Positions 10,049 through 53,598 are shown, numbered from the stretch's first letter. The stretch: 64,000 bases of DNA from Dehalococcoidia bacterium (GCA_965263065.1 CBDHGH010000003.1:2565592-2629591); one strand, 5' to 3'. Program-made: numbers and translations. Notes: generated by a model from the sequence alone, not told the origin.

Positions 10049-11401
10049 CTACAGCCCGGCGACGACCGCGCGCACGCTGTCGTCGAGGATCGTGAGGATG
10101 TCGTCGACCTGCTGCGCTGTTGTGATCAGGGGCGGAGCGAGCAGGTAGCTGTCGAGCCGGATGCGAGAGATCAGCCCGCGCCGCGTCGCCTCCTGCAGGA
10201 GCTTCATGCCGGCGGCGGATTCCATGGGGAATGGCGTGTCGCTGTCGGGATCCTGCAGCAGGTCGAAGCCCTGCATGAATCCCAGGCCACGCACATTGCC
10301 GACGTTCGAGTGGCCGGCGGCCAGCGTCTCGAGGCCGGCGCGCAACTGCGCACCGCGCGCGGCCGCGTTCTCCACCAACTGCTCGTCCTCCATGATCTGG
10401 AGGTTGCGCAGCGCGACGGCCGCCGCGGCCGTATGCCCCGAGTTGGTGTAGGCGTGCATGAAGCGCGTGCTGGGGTCGGTGCCGGTGATGGTCTCGTGCA
10501 CCTCCTTCGACCAGATTGCCGCCGCCATGGGGATGTAGGCGCTCGTGATCGCCTTGGCCGTGGAGACCATGTCGGGTTGGACCCCGTAGTGCTCCAGCGC
10601 GAACCAGGCGCCCGTGCGGCCGAAGCCGGTGATGACCTCGTCGTCGATGAGCAGGATGTCGTTCTCGTCGCAGATCTCGCGCAGCCGCGGGAAGTAGCTG
10701 TCGGCGGCGACGTGTATCCCGCCGGCGCCCTGCACGGGCTCGGCGATGATCGCCGCGATGGTGTCGGCGCCCTCATCCTCAATCGCCTCGGCGATCCGGT
10801 CGATATCGACGTTGGCGGGGTCGATCCGCCCCCCGCCCGTGAGCTTGGGCTCCACGCTGGCGGCGGGAATGGCTTCGCCGACGCGCGGGCCGAAGTTGGG
10901 GTAGTAGACCTTCATCCCGGTCATCGACATCGCGGCCAGGGTGTTGCCGTGGTAGGCCTCCGCCCGGCTGATGATCTTGGTCTTCTCGGGGCGGCCCTTC
11001 ACCGACCAGTAGTAGCGGGCGGCCTTGAAGTTGGTCTCGTTCGACTCGGAACCCGAGTTGCCGAAGAAGACGGCCTGCATGTTCGGGTAGCAGAGGCCGA
11101 CGACCTTGGCGGCCAGCTCGATGGCGGGTGGGTTGCTGAAGCCCACGTAGTTGCTGGTGAAGGCCGCCTGCGACATCTGGTCCGCGGCGGCCTGCGCCAG
11201 CTCGGTGCGGCCGTGACCCACGGCAACGTTCCAGAGGGCGGAGAGCCCGTCGATGTAGCGCTTGCCGTCGTGCCCGACGAGGTAGATGCCTTCCCCGCGC
11301 TCGATCAGGATCGGGGCCTGATGGGCCGCAGGGTGGTAGAGCGGGTGCACCCAGTGCGCGAGGTCGATCTCGACCAGTTCCTGATAGCGCGAGTCGTCCA
11401 T
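10049..11401 (-). CDS. class III pyridoxal-phosphate aminotransferase (BioA or omega-transaminase-like)
   Basis: 450 aa; aminotransferase class III motifs (LIDDEVITGFGRTG); adjacent to birA. Confidence 0.85.
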   Translation of the reverse strand: MDDSRYQELVEIDLAHWVHPLYHPAAHQAPILIERGEGIYLVGHDGKRYIDGLSALWNVAVGHGRTELAQAAADQMSQAAFTSNYVGFSNPPAIELAAKVVGLCYPNMQAVFFGNSGSESNETNFKAARYYWSVKGRPEKTKIISRAEAYHGNTLAAMSMTGMKVYYPNFGPRVGEAIPAASVEPKLTGGGRIDPANVDIDRIAEAIEDEGADTIAAIIAEPVQGAGGIHVAADSYFPRLREICDENDILLIDDEVITGFGRTGAWFALEHYGVQPDMVSTAKAITSAYIPMAAAIWSKEVHETITGTDPSTRFMHAYTNSGHTAAAAVALRNLQIMEDEQLVENAAARGAQLRAGLETLAAGHSNVGNVRGLGFMQGFDLLQDPDSDTPFPMESAAGMKLLQEATRRGLISRIRLDSYLLAPPLITTAQQVDDILTILDDSVRAVVAGL

Positions 11402-20643: not shown

Positions 20644-21225
20644 ATGGACTTTTTCGGCATCGGGGTTCTTGAGGTGGTGGCCGTACTGCTGCTGATCGCG
20701 ATCGTGTTCGGGCCTCACCGCCTGCCGGAGATCGCCGGGCAGTTTGGCCGTGCGATCCGAGATCTTCGCGAATACGCCCGCGACTTCCGCGACGAATACC
20801 TGACCGATTTCGAGGAGGTCAAGGAGGAGTACCTGGAGGTCCGGCACGACCTGGAACAGACGGACAAGGAGCTGCGCGAGGAACTGAAGCAGATCGACGC
20901 GGAGGTGCGTCTCGCCGCGGCGGAGGTCAAGGGCGCGGTCGAAGACACGGCCTCGGAGGTCACCGGAACTCCCGCGGAGGTCACCGGAACTCCCGCGGAG
21001 GTCGCCGCGGCCGCCGCGGAAGCCGCGGGAGTCGCGGCCGCAGCCGCCGCGGATGCCGCCGCCGCGGCTGCGGCGGCCGAGGCCAGCCTGCCGGCGGCAG
21101 CGCCGATCGCGGAGCGGCCCCGTGGCGCGCGGCGGCGGCTGGGGCGAACGTCCTCGGGCGCATCCAAGGCCGCCCGCCCCGGCAACGTCATCTCCATCAA
21201 CCGCCGGCGCCGGCCGGGCCGGTAG
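20644..21225 (+). CDS. tatA: Sec-independent translocase TatA/TatB family protein
   Basis: Motif GIGVLEVVAVLLLIAIVFGPHRLPE; long Ala-rich C-terminal tail. Confidence 0.8.
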   Translation: MDFFGIGVLEVVAVLLLIAIVFGPHRLPEIAGQFGRAIRDLREYARDFRDEYLTDFEEVKEEYLEVRHDLEQTDKELREELKQIDAEVRLAAAEVKGAVEDTASEVTGTPAEVTGTPAEVAAAAAEAAGVAAAAAADAAAAAAAAEASLPAAAPIAERPRGARRRLGRTSSGASKAARPGNVISINRRRRPGR

Positions 21226-21282
21226 CCGGCCCATCGGGCGCGCGCGCCCGGCCGGCGCATATTCGGGCAGAGCAAATCCACG

Positions 21283-22086
21283 ATGGCGAGTCAGCCAGAG
21301 CCAGCACCCGAGATCGTTGACGACGAGGCGCAAAACGCCCCGGCGGGGATGCTCACCATTGGTGAGCACTTGGTGGAGGCGCGGCAGCGCCTGACGATCG
21401 CCGCACTCACAATCGTCCTCACGACGGTCGTCTCGCTGATCTTCACGAATCAGATCCTGGACTACCTGATCGAACCGGCCCGCGTCGCGGATCCGGACTT
21501 CCGGCCGATCTTCACCGAGTTGCTGGGCTTCATTTCGGCCTATTTCAAGATCGGGCTGCTGGTCGGCATCGCCGTGGCGATGCCGATGGTGATCTACCAG
21601 GGGTTCATGTTCATCAACCCGGGGCTGGAACCGCAGGAGCGGCGCTGGCTGCTGCCGATCGTGTTGCTCGCCTCGCTCTCCTTCGCCGGCGGGGGCGCGT
21701 TCGCGTTCTACGTGGCCTGGCCCCCGGCGCTCGACTTCCTCTTGGACTTCGGCGACAACATCGCCGATCCGCAGATCCGCATCAGCAACTACATCGACAT
21801 GCTCACCCGCTTCGTGTTCTGGACCGGCATCGTCTTCGAGACGCCGCTGGTACTCATGGGCTTCGGCTGGCTGGGCCTCGTCACCGCGCGCCGCCTCGTT
21901 AAGGCATGGCGCTGGGCGATCATTGGCTCGTTCGTCATCGCGGCGTTTATCACGCCCTCGATCGACCCCGTCACTCAGGCGGCGGTCGCGATCCCGCTGA
22001 TCTTCCTCTACGGCCTGGGCATCCTGCTGGTCAAGCTCGTCGAGAAGCGAGGGCTGGGCCGCCATCGGAACGTTGAGCCCGAGTAG
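21283..22086 (+). CDS. tatC: Sec-independent translocase TatC
   Basis: 267 aa; six-TM TatC pattern (LIEPARV... FETPLVLM). Confidence 0.88.
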   Translation: MASQPEPAPEIVDDEAQNAPAGMLTIGEHLVEARQRLTIAALTIVLTTVVSLIFTNQILDYLIEPARVADPDFRPIFTELLGFISAYFKIGLLVGIAVAMPMVIYQGFMFINPGLEPQERRWLLPIVLLASLSFAGGGAFAFYVAWPPALDFLLDFGDNIADPQIRISNYIDMLTRFVFWTGIVFETPLVLMGFGWLGLVTARRLVKAWRWAIIGSFVIAAFITPSIDPVTQAAVAIPLIFLYGLGILLVKLVEKRGLGRHRNVEPE

Positions 22087-48616: not shown

Positions 48617-49954
<1,338 letters not shown>

Positions 49955-50157
49955 GGGTACTCGCAGGCGCATCGTGGGGCTGGCGGGGATTACGACGAGC
50001 CGTGCGCGGGGGCTCCCGATCACGGTATCGCCGGCCCGGAGTGGGCTCAACGAACGAGCTAACACGCCCGCGCCCCGATCAGCGCTCGTTGACGGCGGTG
50101 CGCGACGCTGGATAGGGTGCCGCTGACGCGGCAGCGCCTGCGAAGGAGTAGCTCCGG

Positions 50158-50277: not shown

Positions 50278-50402
50278 GCGTCGCTCACGCCGCGCCGGCG
50301 CCGTCGCGCCGCGTTCGCGTTAGTCGGGGCGACCCTTGTGGTCGCCCTGCCGGGCGCCCTGCCGGGCGGAGTCCGGGCGCCCTACCCGCCCGCCTTCCCT
50401 TT

Positions 50403-50477
50403 CCGGTCCCCCCTCTCCAGCGCTTTAGCTGGAGAGGGGGGCAGGGGGTGAGGTTCCCACGCAGGGGGTGAGGTTCC
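50403..50477. repeat. GC-rich hairpin element copy A (CCGGTCCCCCCTCTCCAGC-gcttta-GCTGGAGAGGGGGG + 2x GCAGGGGGTGAGGTTCC)
   Basis: Seen in the sequence; immediately 3' of the stop codon of the substrate-binding protein gene. Confidence 0.75.
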
Positions 50478-50480
50478 GCT

Positions 50481-52859
50481 CTACACCCCGGGCTTGCCCT
50501 CAAACCACGACCGGTACAGCCGTTGGGTGGCGGCGGTGCTGCTGTTGGTCGGGCCGTAGCCCTTGAGCCAGGGACGGTGTGCGACGGTCGGCACGCCCCA
50601 ATTGAAGAAGATCCGGGGCACGTGCTCTTCGAGCAGCTTGGTCTGGATCTCGTCGTAGATCGACACCCGGTTCTCGGTGCCGATGGTGGTGCGTCCCTGC
50701 TCCAGCAGCGCGTCGATCTCGGGGTCGGAGAACTTGCCGTAGTTCCGTGCGCCGTCGGTCTGGTGGCTGCTGGAGAGGATGTCGGGGTCGTGCGCGCCGC
50801 CGAAGCCATTCCAGTGGATGGAGAAATTCCCCGACGACCGCTGGTCCTGGCCCTCCATGCTGGTCGTCTCCTCAAGATCGACCTCGAAGCCGATTTCGGC
50901 CCAGTTCTGCTGGCCCACCTGCGCGTAATGGATGGATCCGTCCCAGGAGCTCATCGGCGGCACGCTCGCCGGGTCGTAGCCGCTGGCGTCGAGCAGCCGC
51001 CGGCCCTCGGCCAGGTCCTCCTCGCGCAGGGCGCCGGAGCGGTAGCCGGGCAGCTCGCGGAGCTCGTCGGCGCTCCACGCGTACACGCCGGCCGCGTGGC
51101 AGATCACCCCGCCGATCTCGATGAGACCTTGGCCCACCGCGAAGAGCTGTTCCCGGTTGGTGGCGAGATGCAGGGCCATGCGCACGCGCGGGTCGGTGTA
51201 GGGCTCGACCTGGAGGTTGAAGTGCGTCGAGAAGCTCCAGGTCGCTTGCATGGGCACTTCGACGAGGTTCTCCTCGCCGACCTGGGCCCGCACGGCCTCG
51301 TTCTCTGCCGGGAAGCCCAGCCACGGGATTAAGAGGAAGTCGGCCTCGCCGGCGACGTACTGTGCGGCCCGATACGCCGCGTCCGCATTCCAGTTCGCCC
51401 GGAACCCGTCGAAGTAGGGGAGCCCTGCGCGGAAGTAGTTGGGGTTGCGTTCCAGCACGGTGAGGACGTCGGCCTCACGGGAGACATGCTGCATGCCGCC
51501 GGTGCCGATGGCGGCCTCGGGGTTGCTGGCGATGCCGTCGTCGCCGAAGGCCTCGACCGCGTCGCGTGAGACCATGAGCACCCGCTGCTCGCCGACGGCG
51601 TAGAGCAGCGGCGCGAACACCTCTCTCGCCTTGATGTGCAGGGTGAGTTCGTCGGTGGCCTCGTACTGGTCGACGGCGGAGAGGAGGTCTTTCAAGATGA
51701 ACTCGGGGTTGTCCTGGCCGAAGCGTGCGAGTCCGAAAGCGGCGTCTTCGGCGACGAACTGACGCCCGTTCAGCGGGGCCTTGTCCTGCCAGTGCACGTT
51801 CGGCTTGATGGCGTAGATGAAGTTGAGCTCATCGACGACCTCGGGCAGCTCCGCCATCGCCGAGGTGAGCACACCGCCGTTATCGAGGTAGTTGATGTGG
51901 TCGTAGATCGGCAACCAGTTGCTGTCGTTGCCGCCGTGGTCGGCGATGGCCGGGTCGAGGATGCCGCCGCTGTCCGCGAAGTAGGTGACGACGCCTCCGT
52001 ACTGCGGGCCGGTGGCCGGGGCCGGCTCGTCCTCCGCCGCCGCCATGGCCGCGCTCTCGGCGGCCTCCTGGGCCGCGTCGGCGGCCTCTTGGGCGGCGGC
52101 GACGGCCGCGGCGGCGGTCTCGGCCGCGGCTTCGGCGGTCTCCTGGGCCGTGGCGGCGGCCTGCCCGGCGGCGGCGGCGGCCTGCCCGGCGGCGGCGGAC
52201 GCCTCCCCGGCGGCCGCCGCGGCGGCGGCAGCGGCCTCGGCGGCGTTGTCGATGGCGGCCTGGGCGGCCGCCGCGGTGGCCGTGCCGGCTTCGACGGCCG
52301 CGGCGACATCGCGGGCGGCCTGGGCGGCGGCCTCGGCCGCCTCGGCGGCGGCGTCCGCGACGGCCGCGGCAGCGGCGTCGCCGGCAGCGCCAGCGGCGTC
52401 GGCGGCCTGGGCGGCCGCTGCGGCGGCGGCTTCCGCGGCGGCGGCCGCGTTGCCGGCGTCTTCCGACTCGGCCGCCTCGGCGGCCAAGGCGGCGGCGGCA
52501 TCGGCGGCGCTGGCCGCCTGCGAGGCGGCGGCGGAGGCCTCGCCGGCGGCGTCTGCCGCGTCGGCCGCAGCGGCGGAGGCCTCGCCTGCGGCGTCTGCCG
52601 CCTCGGCCGCGACGGCGGCGGCGGCGGCGGATTCGGCGGCGCGCGCATCCCCGGCGGCGACCGCCGCGGCGGCGGCCTCTTCCGCGGCCGCGGCGGCCCG
52701 TTCGGCCGCCACGGCGCCGGCGTCGGGCCCGTCGTCGTCGCCGCAGCCGACCAGGGCGAGGCCGGCTGCTCCAACCCCAGCCTTCGCGCTGGCTCCCAAC
52801 ATGGTGCGGCGTGAGATCTTCCGCTGTCGCAGGGTCGTCCAATAGTTCCGGCGGCTCAT
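50481..52859 (-). CDS. ABC transporter substrate-binding lipoprotein (family 5, peptide/nickel type) with Tat signal, lipobox and a roughly 270-aa Ala/Glu-rich low-complexity spacer
   Basis: Tat-signal and lipobox region MSRRNYW...SRRTMLGASAKAGVGAAGLALVGCG; spacer AAAEEAAAAA...; C-terminal SBP_bac_5-like domain; GGAAGGGA RBS; no permease or ATPase genes adjacent. Confidence 0.78.
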   Translation of the reverse strand: MSRRNYWTTLRQRKISRRTMLGASAKAGVGAAGLALVGCGDDDGPDAGAVAAERAAAAAEEAAAAAVAAGDARAAESAAAAAVAAEAADAAGEASAAAADAADAAGEASAAASQAASAADAAAALAAEAAESEDAGNAAAAAEAAAAAAAQAADAAGAAGDAAAAAVADAAAEAAEAAAQAARDVAAAVEAGTATAAAAQAAIDNAAEAAAAAAAAAGEASAAAGQAAAAAGQAAATAQETAEAAAETAAAAVAAAQEAADAAQEAAESAAMAAAEDEPAPATGPQYGGVVTYFADSGGILDPAIADHGGNDSNWLPIYDHINYLDNGGVLTSAMAELPEVVDELNFIYAIKPNVHWQDKAPLNGRQFVAEDAAFGLARFGQDNPEFILKDLLSAVDQYEATDELTLHIKAREVFAPLLYAVGEQRVLMVSRDAVEAFGDDGIASNPEAAIGTGGMQHVSREADVLTVLERNPNYFRAGLPYFDGFRANWNADAAYRAAQYVAGEADFLLIPWLGFPAENEAVRAQVGEENLVEVPMQATWSFSTHFNLQVEPYTDPRVRMALHLATNREQLFAVGQGLIEIGGVICHAAGVYAWSADELRELPGYRSGALREEDLAEGRRLLDASGYDPASVPPMSSWDGSIHYAQVGQQNWAEIGFEVDLEETTSMEGQDQRSSGNFSIHWNGFGGAHDPDILSSSHQTDGARNYGKFSDPEIDALLEQGRTTIGTENRVSIYDEIQTKLLEEHVPRIFFNWGVPTVAHRPWLKGYGPTNSSTAATQRLYRSWFEGKPGV

Positions 52860-52932
52860 CACATGTTCCCTTCCGGTCCCCGGCTGTCCCGTTGTGGGAT
52901 CGCTCGGTGCGTGAGCACGCACAGTATCGCAC

Positions 52933-52959
52933 ATTATAAGCGTGCACCCCCCCCCCCCC
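52933..52959 (-). promoter_or_regulatory. Candidate promoter: perfect TATAAT -10 box (minus strand) 8 nt downstream of a 13-nt G tract (C13 on the plus strand at 52947-52959)
   Basis: Seen in the sequence; lies in an AT-richer island about 75 nt upstream of the substrate-binding protein start. Confidence 0.5.
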
Positions 52960-53087
52960 GTTATGTCATATAGGAAGGAAATTATGGGGTTATCCACCGA
53001 ATTTTTCGGCTTCTCACGCTGTTGGAACCCCCCCCTGTGTCACTCGTGGGGTTCCGGCGTGCGATCGCGCGGGGGAACCTCGCCCGT

Positions 53088-53143
53088 CCGGTCCCCCCTC
53101 TCCATCGCTTCAGCTGGAGAGGGGGTTAGGGGGTGAGGTTCCC
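53088..53143. repeat. GC-rich hairpin element copy B (CCGGTCCCCCCTCTCCATC-gcttca-GCTGGAGAGGGGG-TTAGGGGGTGAGGTTCCC), in the same orientation as copy A
   Basis: Seen in the sequence; an inverted partial motif GGGGGAACCTC at 53071-53084 gives an outer stem. Confidence 0.75.
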
Positions 53144-53253
53144 GACGTCGCACGCCCCGCAGCCCGGTTGTCAGCAGGGTCGTGTAGCGAAGACGTGGGG
53201 CCGAAGCTGTGGGCGAGTATCATGAAGCAAGCGGGCCGCAGGAGAGAACGCCG

Positions 53254-53598
53254 ATGAAGCTGACCTACGCCGTCGTCTTCGAGCAGACGCCCAACAACTA
53301 CTGCGCCTACGTGCCGGACGTGCCGGGCTGCATCAGCACGGGCAAGACCTGGGACGAGATGCAGGCGCTGATCCGGGAGGCGCTCAGCTTCCATATCGAG
53401 GATCTGCTGGAGCAGGGCGAGCCCCTCCCCGAGCCGAAGATGTCCATCAAGCAGGCGATCGCCTGCCACAACGAGCCCATCCCCGAGGATGTCCTCCGGT
53501 CGTACGCCGAGTACGGCGACGACACTCCCACGCTGTCGACGAGGGTCGAGCTCGTGGAGGTGGAGGTTCCGGCCCCGCAGGCGGCGCGGGCGAACTGA
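53254..53598 (+). CDS. HicB-like (UPF0150 family) type II antitoxin-fold protein, orphan
   Basis: Sequence MKLTYAVVFEQTPNNYCAYVPDVPGCISTGKTWDEMQALIREALSFHIEDLLEQGEPLPEP; GGAGAG RBS; no hicA nearby. Confidence 0.65.
   Translation: MKLTYAVVFEQTPNNYCAYVPDVPGCISTGKTWDEMQALIREALSFHIEDLLEQGEPLPEPKMSIKQAIACHNEPIPEDVLRSYAEYGDDTPTLSTRVELVEVEVPAPQAARAN

Follow-up and report, generated by a model that had tools for sequence, protein, structure and literature searches.

We describe a lipoprotein gene on the minus strand (50481-52859) of a 64,000-nt stretch of genomic DNA from a Dehalococcoidia bacterium (GCA_965263065.1, CBDHGH010000003.1:2565592-2629591); this whole stretch is referred to as the window. 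The 792-amino-acid (aa) product consists of three parts: a twin-arginine/lipobox leader, a 244-aa alanine-rich spacer and a family-5 substrate-binding protein (SBP) domain. An annotation made earlier from the sequence alone (the first-pass annotation) had described a twin-arginine translocation (Tat) motif and a lipobox, followed by a long Ala/acidic spacer and by a family-5 SBP domain, and all of these elements are present in the product. The gene encodes a family-5 SBP lipoprotein, an ordinary component whose form is unusual and apparently undescribed; the searchable literature yielded no earlier description of Ala-rich SBP linkers in Chloroflexota. We consider it probable that the protein is the receptor of an ATP-binding cassette (ABC) importer of the Opp/Dpp/Nik type, exported by the Tat system, lipid-anchored and raised on a helical stalk, and that it is encoded behind a shared, recombining 5′ cassette that includes a tunable promoter.

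Stalked paralogues in permease operons

Close relatives of the protein were found by a genome-collection scan in metagenome-assembled genomes (MAGs) of Dehalococcoidia and Chloroflexota, with genome sizes of 2.65-3.15 Mb. We surveyed the family in loci (L001-L039) from five related Dehalococcoidia genomes, including chromosome-level assemblies, together with the window genome. Two of the bins, RHO1_ and COS3_, are presumably from sponge metagenomes. In these loci and the window genome together, a near-invariant leader is common to at least 33 SBP_bac_5 genes, each of which also encodes a spacer 215-250 aa long; the spacers consist of about 61% Ala, 12% Glu and 7% Asp, and their charge is -36 to -43 in all copies. 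OZ244557.1 alone holds at least 10 copies of the stalked SBP, and two further paralogues (P0050 and P0094) lie on the window's own 2.70-Mb contig, where the window protein is P0001. The family takes in very divergent SBP_bac_5 subfamilies, whose mature domains are approximately 27% identical.

The genomic context of these paralogues bears directly on function. The same leader and spacer occur on genes located directly 5′ of two genes for six-transmembrane proteins of about 300-320 aa each (L006, L015, L016, L022, L025, L027-L029, L031-L034), and profile matches identify the downstream pair in L025 as BPD_transp_1 proteins, one of them with OppC_N. Because paralogues heading permease operons carry this leader and spacer, the spacer appears to be a normal attribute of ABC-importer receptors in the lineage. 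The first-pass annotation had proposed a surface receptor or S-layer protein rather than a transporter component, a view against which these operons argue. No Walker-A gene passing the coding filter was detected within 10 kb on either side of the SBP-permease-permease operons; the ATPases are presumably encoded elsewhere and shared among operons.

The window gene itself had been called an orphan. This is correct, because every multi-transmembrane and Walker-A protein of the 64-kb window was inspected and none is an ABC permease (BPD_transp_1) or transporter ATPase. The syntenic orthologue L005 (OZ244557.1), which lies in the order FtsH, PPase, SBP, GlyRS, UvrA, is an orphan as well.

Pfam SBP_bac_5 (PF00496) covers residues 336-693 (E = 3e-35; 122.3 bits against a cutoff of 32.4), and the domain is full length, with family-typical residues conserved in an alignment of 82 homologues. 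Sequence matches in the PDB include CtaP/Lmo0135, AgaA, YliB and DppA (best E = 3e-14). In a Foldseek search, the AlphaFold2 (AF2) model of the C-terminal 500 residues matched GbpA, CtaP, MppA, AgaA, OppA, DppA and NikA, with E values of 1e-16 to 1e-14 and template-modelling scores, TM(target), of 0.5-0.66.

The direct orthologues P0144 (771 aa) and P0147 (785 aa), which differ from the window protein by 21 and 7 aa in total length, both possess the Ala-rich spacer and fall into one 90%-identity cluster with P0002, whose domain is 96% identical to that of the window protein. A sister lineage (L001, L003, L010; P0003, P0004, P0014, P0056, P0142) has binding domains up to 92% identical joined to a Gln/Glu-rich spacer of 67-73 aa; its SBP genes are followed by permeases and have their own G8-G14 promoter tract. 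The pre-domain region measures about 30-110 aa in the best 150 representatives (50% clusters) of the binding domain, and the only longer one (about 217 aa) is found in the fragment P0123. In an SBP_bac_6/1 lipoprotein with a Sec-type leader (L034:3315-4889, minus strand), about 165 aa form a related Ala-rich spacer, and in an M28/PA peptidase lipoprotein (L021:12447-14045, minus strand) about 170 aa form an acidic A/E/D/Q/P linker. Because these two lipoproteins carry them too, long acidic tethers appear to be a trait of the lineage. A homologue search with the spacer alone let only 5 matches through, probably owing to filtering for composition bias.

The reading frame is shifted in two members of the family: in L035 at an internal G11 (10624-10634), which codes for a run of Gly, and in L039 within the spacer (about 10400-10430). 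Pseudogenes, misassembled homopolymers or switching by coding tracts could account for these shifts.

Conservation and predicted structure of the spacer

The spacer of the window protein spans 244 aa, with an Ala-rich core at approximately residues 47-276. Ala accounts for 61% of residues, Glu for 10% and Asp for 7%, and Ala, Glu, Asp, Gly, Ser and Gln together for 90%; with three Arg and without any Lys, the net charge is -38. Pro occupies only 3 of the 244 positions, all at the ends. The first-pass annotation had given the spacer about 270 residues made almost entirely of A, E, D, G, S and Q, which is accurate for composition and too high for length.

Pairwise comparison revealed a dissociation between the spacer and the domain attached to it. 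Spacers are 92-95% identical at the amino acid level, at attached-domain identities ranging from 22% to 99%. At identical spacer residues, synonymous-codon identity is 75-79% in all pair classes; the value expected by chance from the Ala codon bias of the spacer (73% GCC) is about 58%, and the domains of close orthologues reach 97%. Because synonymous sites have drifted and residues have not, the amino acid sequence of the spacer appears to be under purifying selection. The spacer, moreover, does not share the recent history of the attached domain, which indicates that spacers have been exchanged among paralogues. Recent gene conversion alone was rejected as the source of spacer identity, since the synonymous sites have diverged to a level less alike than in close-orthologue domains.

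Length variation in the spacer follows a regular step. Repetition in its DNA is only cryptic, with a 56-62% match at periods of 6, 21 and 27 bp (Tandem Repeats Finder), and the longest exact repeat, a 21-bp tandem duplication, matches a 7-aa insertion present in only some family members. In the displayed family alignment, every spacer indel measures 7 or 14 aa, and the indels occur at three hot spots. The earlier suggestion that the repetitive DNA is prone to slippage agrees with the slippage-like 21-bp length steps between orthologues (771, 785 and 792 aa). The same comparison of spacer lengths among orthologues settles another point raised there, in that the orthologues do carry the spacer.

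AF2 predicted long alpha-helices throughout the spacer, in keeping with the helical character that had been suggested for it. With the 82-sequence alignment, helices were placed at residues 47-129, 135-158, 162-190 and 196-274, with a predicted local distance difference test score (pLDDT) of 65-77. When the spacer was modelled alone, they were placed at 47-68, 72-131, 135-191 and 196-276 (pLDDT 79; predicted template-modelling score, pTM, 0.58). Breaks near residues 130-134 and 191-195 are common to both models. On the basis of helix geometry, the stalk would measure about 10-12 nm as a three-helix bundle and up to about 35 nm when extended (0.15 nm per residue). A canonical coiled coil or single alpha-helix (SAH) domain was considered and rejected, given the absence of Lys and the presence in 244 residues of only three Arg and only 10 V/L/I/M, the latter without significant periodicity.

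When aligned with the Ala-rich spacer, the Gln/Glu-rich spacer of the sister lineage corresponds to its C-terminal third and shows many Ala-to-Gln exchanges. These exchanges are compatible with selection for helix propensity and acidity.

A 5′ cassette exchanged among paralogues

The conserved region extends well beyond the spacer. It comprises a hairpin, an AT-rich upstream element, a G/C homopolymer, a -10-like element, a 5′ leader, the signal peptide and the stalk. Sequence comparisons indicate that recombination moves this 5′ cassette (promoter, leader and spacer) separately from the binding domain. Between L006 and L007, nucleotide identity is 99.6% for the domain and 89.8% for the spacer; L004 and L017 have domains 95.9% identical and promoters of different types; and L003 and L017, with domains 94% identical, differ in having a 68-aa Gln-rich spacer and an Ala-rich spacer, respectively. 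A single 90%-identity protein cluster holds members of 604, 615, 771 and 785 aa. Within one genome the promoters tend to be of one type, whereas orthologous domains in different genomes have promoters of different types, a distribution that implies within-genome homogenisation of the 5′ cassette.

A 28-nt palindrome (CCCTCTCCA...TGGAGAGGG) occurs in exactly two copies in the window, and these bracket the promoter and the SBP gene. The same type of hairpin, resembling repetitive extragenic palindromic (REP) elements, is present in 145 copies in 711 kb of related loci. About half of the 145 lie no more than 450 nt 5′ or 400 nt 3′ of a family SBP gene, and others at the ends of SBP-permease operons. 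The palindrome may be a terminator, an insulator or a recombination border.

Homopolymer tracts in the promoter region

The cassette contains a homopolymer tract upstream of the start codon, G13 in the window gene. A G or C run occupies the equivalent site, about 92-111 nt 5′ of the gene, in almost every family member (L001-L039), with lengths of G7-G23 and C9-C19. Related loci totalling 711 kb contain 39 G/C runs of at least 9 nt, of which 37 lie directly 5′ of a leader-encoding family SBP gene, and the sequences flanking the tract are conserved for 200-300 nt upstream. A second run, G8, is located at 53028-53035 (minus strand), about 170 nt 5′ of the ATG, in a region conserved among G-type cassettes.

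A sigma-70 scan returned no canonical promoter for the SBP gene, and the promoter elements are named here from paralogue alignments only. Two main layouts were distinguished. In the C-type layout, TTGAC(C/G)-tg-C(9-12)-tagacgt-CATAAT, the tract lies inside the -35/-10 spacer, with spacings of 18-21/22 nt. The G-type layout, to which the window gene belongs, consists of an AT-rich element with GTGGATAAC, TTGACA/ATGACA, 3-4 nt, G(n), 17-18 nt and TGn-(C/G)ATACT; in alignments of such promoters the putative -10 element is conserved as TGnCATACT/GATACT. The promoter of the Gln-spacer lineage reads TTGACA-(1-5 nt)-G(8-14)-TAGTTT.

Tract length varies between close relatives. Three orthologue pairs with domains 98.9-99.8% identical at the nucleotide level and tract flanks 77-93% identical have C10/C11, C12/C11 and C11/C11, and the syntenic orthologue has G11 compared with G13 in the window gene, lengths to be read with the proviso that homopolymers in long-read MAGs may be miscalled by 1-2 nt. 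Because G and C orientations both occur, a role for duplex length appears more plausible than a role in RNA or as a G-quadruplex. The geometry resembles that of phase-variable promoters, and tract length probably sets the transcription level of each copy, such that cells could express different subsets of receptors.

The 8-mer GTGGATAA/TTATCCAC is found 19 times in 775 kb, and 16 of the 19 occurrences lie 130-168 nt 5′ of family SBP starts. The GTGGATAAC/TTATCCAC motif could be the binding site of a regulator. It is sometimes duplicated in the upstream element.

Downstream of the promoter, the conserved 5′ leader region contains a hairpin and, 7 nt 5′ of ATG 52859, the sequence GGAAGGGA. A riboswitch or structured 5′ leader found no support, because folding energy is no better than that of shuffled sequences (z = -0.1) and Rfam returned only spurious hairpin matches on the 5′ region, below gathering scores.

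Leader and export

The translated N-terminus reads MSRRNYWTTLRQRKISRRTMLGASAKAGVGAAGLALVGC39 and contains both the SRRTMLGA and the LVGC motifs named in the first-pass annotation. The twin-arginine motif S16-R17-R18-T-M-L-G is followed by a weakly hydrophobic h-region, ASAKAGVGAAGLALVG, and by the lipobox L36-V37-G38-C39. Across the 82 homologues, S16, R17, R18, L21 and the A23-C39 stretch are at least 90% conserved or invariant, and V37, G38 and C39 are invariant. A near-identical leader (...RQRKISRRTMLGASAKAGVGAAGLALVGC) was identified in at least 36 genes; a homologue search with the leader alone returned nothing but short fragments. The Tat translocase that this leader would need is encoded within the same window (20644-22086), whereas genes for Lgt and LspA are absent from the window. 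These motifs argue for Tat export followed by lipidation at Cys39. The TatA/B-family protein encoded beside tatC is unusually long (193 aa), with 22% Ala and a coiled-coil-like tail.

Proposed mechanism and its significance

Chloroflexota are generally regarded as monoderm. According to the explanation that we favour, the folded SBP would be exported by the Tat system encoded in the window and held by a lipid anchor on Cys39 at the outer membrane face of a presumably monoderm cell. The spacer would form a semi-rigid stalk of three or four long alpha-helices, whose charge of about -40 would repel the anionic envelope and hold the binding domain in or beyond the wall. The orphan SBP, which has at least 10 paralogues (itself included) per genome with this leader and stalk, would most likely hand its ligand to the DppB/C-type translocator of a paralogous operon, many such paralogues apparently being co-transcribed with permeases, and the ATPases would be encoded elsewhere and shared. 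The 5′ cassette would be swapped among paralogues independently of the binding domain, and the length of the promoter tract, we infer, may tune the expression of each paralogue.

A bolder version of this model, which we put forward tentatively and with less than even confidence, is that of a contingency-locus system. At least 10 stalked SBP lipoproteins per genome would be individually switched or tuned by slippage in promoter G/C tracts, and would share a recombining 5′ cassette (promoter, Tat-lipoprotein leader and a conserved, polyanionic helical stalk of the 35-nm class) that would pass from one binding domain to another, all in a possibly sponge-associated Dehalococcoidia lineage. If true, this would be the first phase-variable surface family of the Vlp/Fim/Tpr kind in Chloroflexota, and the first with ABC-importer receptors as its variable units, linking bet-hedging or evasion of phages or hosts to nutrient uptake. 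Switching tracts would extend phase variation, known mainly in host-associated pathogens, to environmental or symbiotic Chloroflexota and to nutrient receptors, with consequences for the inference of uptake potential from MAG gene content.

Other implications follow from the stalk and the cassette. If the stalk is a defined helical rod, it would represent a new way for single-membrane bacteria to present anchored SBPs through or beyond the wall while still feeding a translocator. That a "low-complexity" segment of 61% Ala can be under strong purifying selection calls for caution in disorder-based annotation. The portable 5′ cassette offers a clear natural case of modular exchange of promoter, export signal and tether between paralogues.

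Counter-evidence and alternative explanations

Several observations weigh against individual parts of the favoured explanation. For the stalk, the strongest periodicity of non-Ala residues, 3.6 residues, counts in favour of a selected structure but lies at about the 95th-99th percentile of shuffles and is therefore marginal. The stalk alone gave no significant PDB sequence or Foldseek match to a solved structure that would inform its tertiary arrangement, and it has neither a Lys/Arg pattern of the SAH type nor a hydrophobic heptad core, which makes helix stability in isolation uncertain. For the binding domain, the AF2 model is of low confidence at residues 298-431, part of lobe I (overall pTM 0.55), and with regard to ligand class, the NCBIfam equivalogs Opp4A, NikA, OppA and SapA score 33-49 bits against cutoffs of 393-947. 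For export, Tat-signal hidden Markov models (HMMs; Pfam TAT_signal, TIGR01409/NCBIfam) gave no match at E ≤ 0.01, and such short models often miss true signals; the case for Tat export is accordingly built on the motif and its conservation. For the promoter, the TTGACA-like hexamer of the G-type layout lies 29-43 nt from the -10-like hexamer, which does not fit a simple -35/-10 spacing model; since the hexamer is too far away to serve as a -35, the tract would set the distance between the upstream element and the extended -10. Two metagenome DNA pattern scans, one with the window promoter flanks and one with the Gln-type promoter, gave zero matches, and the possible miscalling of homopolymers bears on the tract lengths.

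We weighed these points against other explanations of the protein and its spacer. A non-transporter surface receptor, adhesin or S-layer-associated protein that reuses the SBP fold on a long stalk would agree with the orphan locus in the window and in the syntenic orthologue, with a binding domain that would, on the models, stand far from the membrane, and with the promoter tracts and common 5′ cassette, features that typify variable surface antigens. We nevertheless regard it as quite improbable: the same leader and stalk are found in SBP-permease-permease operons, an SBP_bac_6 protein carries a related stalk, and the domain is full length with its family-typical residues conserved. Orphan SBPs that use the permease of another operon are, moreover, well known. 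Helix formation by the spacer also has an alternative, in which the segment is an intrinsically disordered, polyanionic entropic tether or brush and only composition and length matter. Position-specific conservation of 92-95% despite diverged synonymous sites makes this unlikely, as do indels that are all multiples of 7 aa, consistent AF2 helices (pLDDT 65-79) with two shared breaks, and a composition dominated by the strongest helix formers (Ala, Glu and Gln) with Pro almost absent. Such a tether would nonetheless fit the low complexity and lack of bulky hydrophobic residues, the absence of a PDB sequence or fold match, the disordered-looking acidic linkers of other lipoproteins here (for example, that of the M28 peptidase) and the replacement of much Ala by Gln in the sister lineage. 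Finally, the long spacer might be an assembly or annotation artefact of GC-rich low-complexity DNA, which the frameshifts in L039 and L035 mark as error-prone or mutable. We give this almost no weight, because the frame is intact and continuous with leader and domain, GC content at third codon positions (GC3) and codon usage in the spacer are coding-like, and the architecture recurs in more than 33 genes from six genomes of different projects; this recurrence also speaks against the mis-assembly that the first-pass annotation had considered.

The homopolymer tracts, in turn, might be fixed structural or recombinational features, such as part of a mobile promoter or REP-like element, a protein site, or a G-quadruplex or i-motif, with length differences arising from drift and assembly error. 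This explanation accommodates the failure of the two metagenome scans, in which nothing matched, to show within-population variation, the unsuitability of the G-type geometry for a -35/-10 spacer model, the co-occurrence of tracts with REP-like palindromes at cassette borders, and the miscounting to which long-read assemblies may be subject. On the other side, independent assemblies of short and of long reads place the tract at one and the same site in the promoter, its length varies from 7 to 23 nt although the flanking sequences are otherwise conserved, and two of the three orthologue pairs with near-identical domains differ in it by 1 nt. The presence of sense-strand G in some promoters and C in others favours a duplex-length role, and the C-type tract lies exactly between TTGAC(C/G) and CATAAT, a geometry that experiments have shown to control transcription in Treponema pallidum and Neisseria (PMC7864442). 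We therefore judge fixed tracts to be possible but somewhat unlikely.

Comparison with known systems

Orphan paralogues of the OppA/DppA type that share one translocator are known from Borrelia (OppA1-5) and the pneumococcus (AmiA/AliA/AliB). The family described here resembles the Gram-positive OppA/DppA-type lipoproteins in its PF00496 domain, cluster-C fold, lipobox anchor and several paralogues per genome, some without a permease; it departs from them in its polyanionic Ala-rich stalk of 215-250 aa, its twin-arginine leader and its operons without ATPase genes. Haloarchaea export lipoprotein SBPs by the Tat pathway with short acidic low-complexity linkers, and the order of twin-arginine leader, lipobox and acidic linker before the SBP is common to both. 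Here, however, the organism is a bacterium, and the linker, about 5-10 times as long, contains 61% Ala, is conserved in sequence and is predicted to be helical.

For the stalk itself, TolA domain II and the flounder "Maxi" type I antifreeze protein provide parallels in very high Ala content and long helices (60-190 residues), without homology. Maxi (4ke2) was a 45%-identical, non-significant Foldseek match (rank 19) and is best regarded as a compositional look-alike. TolA II is rich in Lys and has a transmembrane helix as its anchor, and Maxi has an 11-residue Thr periodicity, whereas the stalk of the window protein has no Lys and a charge of about -40.

The cassette as a whole finds its closest analogues in phase-variable surface families. 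In Vlp-type families of Mycoplasma, a conserved 5′ region (homopolymer promoter and lipoprotein leader) is joined to divergent external regions. In the present family, too, a homopolymer promoter and a prolipoprotein leader precede a repetitive charged region and a C-terminal part that diverges, and the 5′ end is common to many paralogues; in contrast, the external part here is an SBP domain, many copies lie in transporter operons, and repeat variation is modest (7-aa steps). The Bordetella paralogues fim2, fim3, fimX and fimN have a common promoter element with a C-stretch of 7-22 nt between the activator region and the -10 box (PMC1891110). The G-type promoters share this layout, and here too each paralogue has a conserved homopolymer-bearing promoter; the genes, however, encode nutrient receptors and not fimbriae and belong to another phylum. 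Transcription of T. pallidum tpr/tp0126 and Neisseria porA/opc is governed by tract length or -35/-10 spacing (PMC7864442). Poly-G or poly-C inside promoters of surface-protein paralogues is the shared feature, the C-type tract again lying between TTGAC(C/G) and CATAAT, while the tracts described here reach greater lengths (up to 23 nt) and include both G and C orientations.

Feature coordinates and genomic surroundings

The open reading frame is intact, begins at ATG 52859 and shows coding-type codon statistics (GC3 0.89) in a window of about 70% GC. Table 1 lists the features.

Table 1. Coordinates of the SBP gene, its 5′ cassette and associated features in the window
Feature	Position	Strand	Basis or remark
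Signal peptide, residues 1-39	52743..52859	-	Translation; motif conservation in homologues
Spacer/stalk, residues 40-283	52011..52742	-	Composition, AF2, paralogue alignment
Exact 21-bp tandem duplication, AAAGQAA twice, residues ~222-235	52153..52198 (approximate)	-	Longest exact non-overlapping repeat in spacer DNA
Mature family-5 (cluster C) SBP domain, residues 284-792	50484..52010	-	Pfam PF00496, PDB sequence matches, Foldseek
Stop codon	50481-50483	-	
28-nt palindrome CCCTCTCCATCGCTTCAGCTGGAGAGGG	53096..53123	.	Between divergent HicB-like gene and SBP promoter; upstream cassette border
Second copy of 28-nt palindrome (CCCTCTCCAGCGCTTTAGCTGGAGAGGG)	50411..50438	.	43 nt 3′ of stop codon
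Terminator-like hairpin	50374-50392		Flagged separately from the 28-nt palindrome copy downstream of the SBP stop
GTGGATAAC motif (resembles DnaA box) within AT-rich upstream element ggtggataaccccataatttccttcc	52989..52997	-	Upstream alignment of paralogues
ATGACA, aligned with TTGACA (-35-like) hexamer of paralogous promoters	52964..52969	-	Consensus resemblance only
G13 tract (C13 on + strand), ~100 nt 5′ of ATG	52947..52959	-	Only homopolymer ≥9 nt in the 64-kb window
TGcGATACT, extended -10-like element, 17-18 nt downstream of tract	52923..52931	-	Alignment of 15 G-type upstream regions
Conserved 5′ leader region, GTCCC-ACAAC-GGGAC hairpin and Shine-Dalgarno GGAAGGGA (52867-52874)	52860..52922	-	Conserved among paralogues
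TatA/B-family gene	20644-21225	+	Pfam TatA_B_E, E 8e-9
TatC gene	21283-22086	+	Pfam TatC, E 4e-58

On one flank of the SBP gene lie genes for GlyRS (48617-50065, minus strand), UvrA and PolA, and on the other a HicB-like gene, H+-PPase, small genes and FtsH. The HicB-like antitoxin gene (53209-53598, plus strand) is divergent from the SBP promoter.

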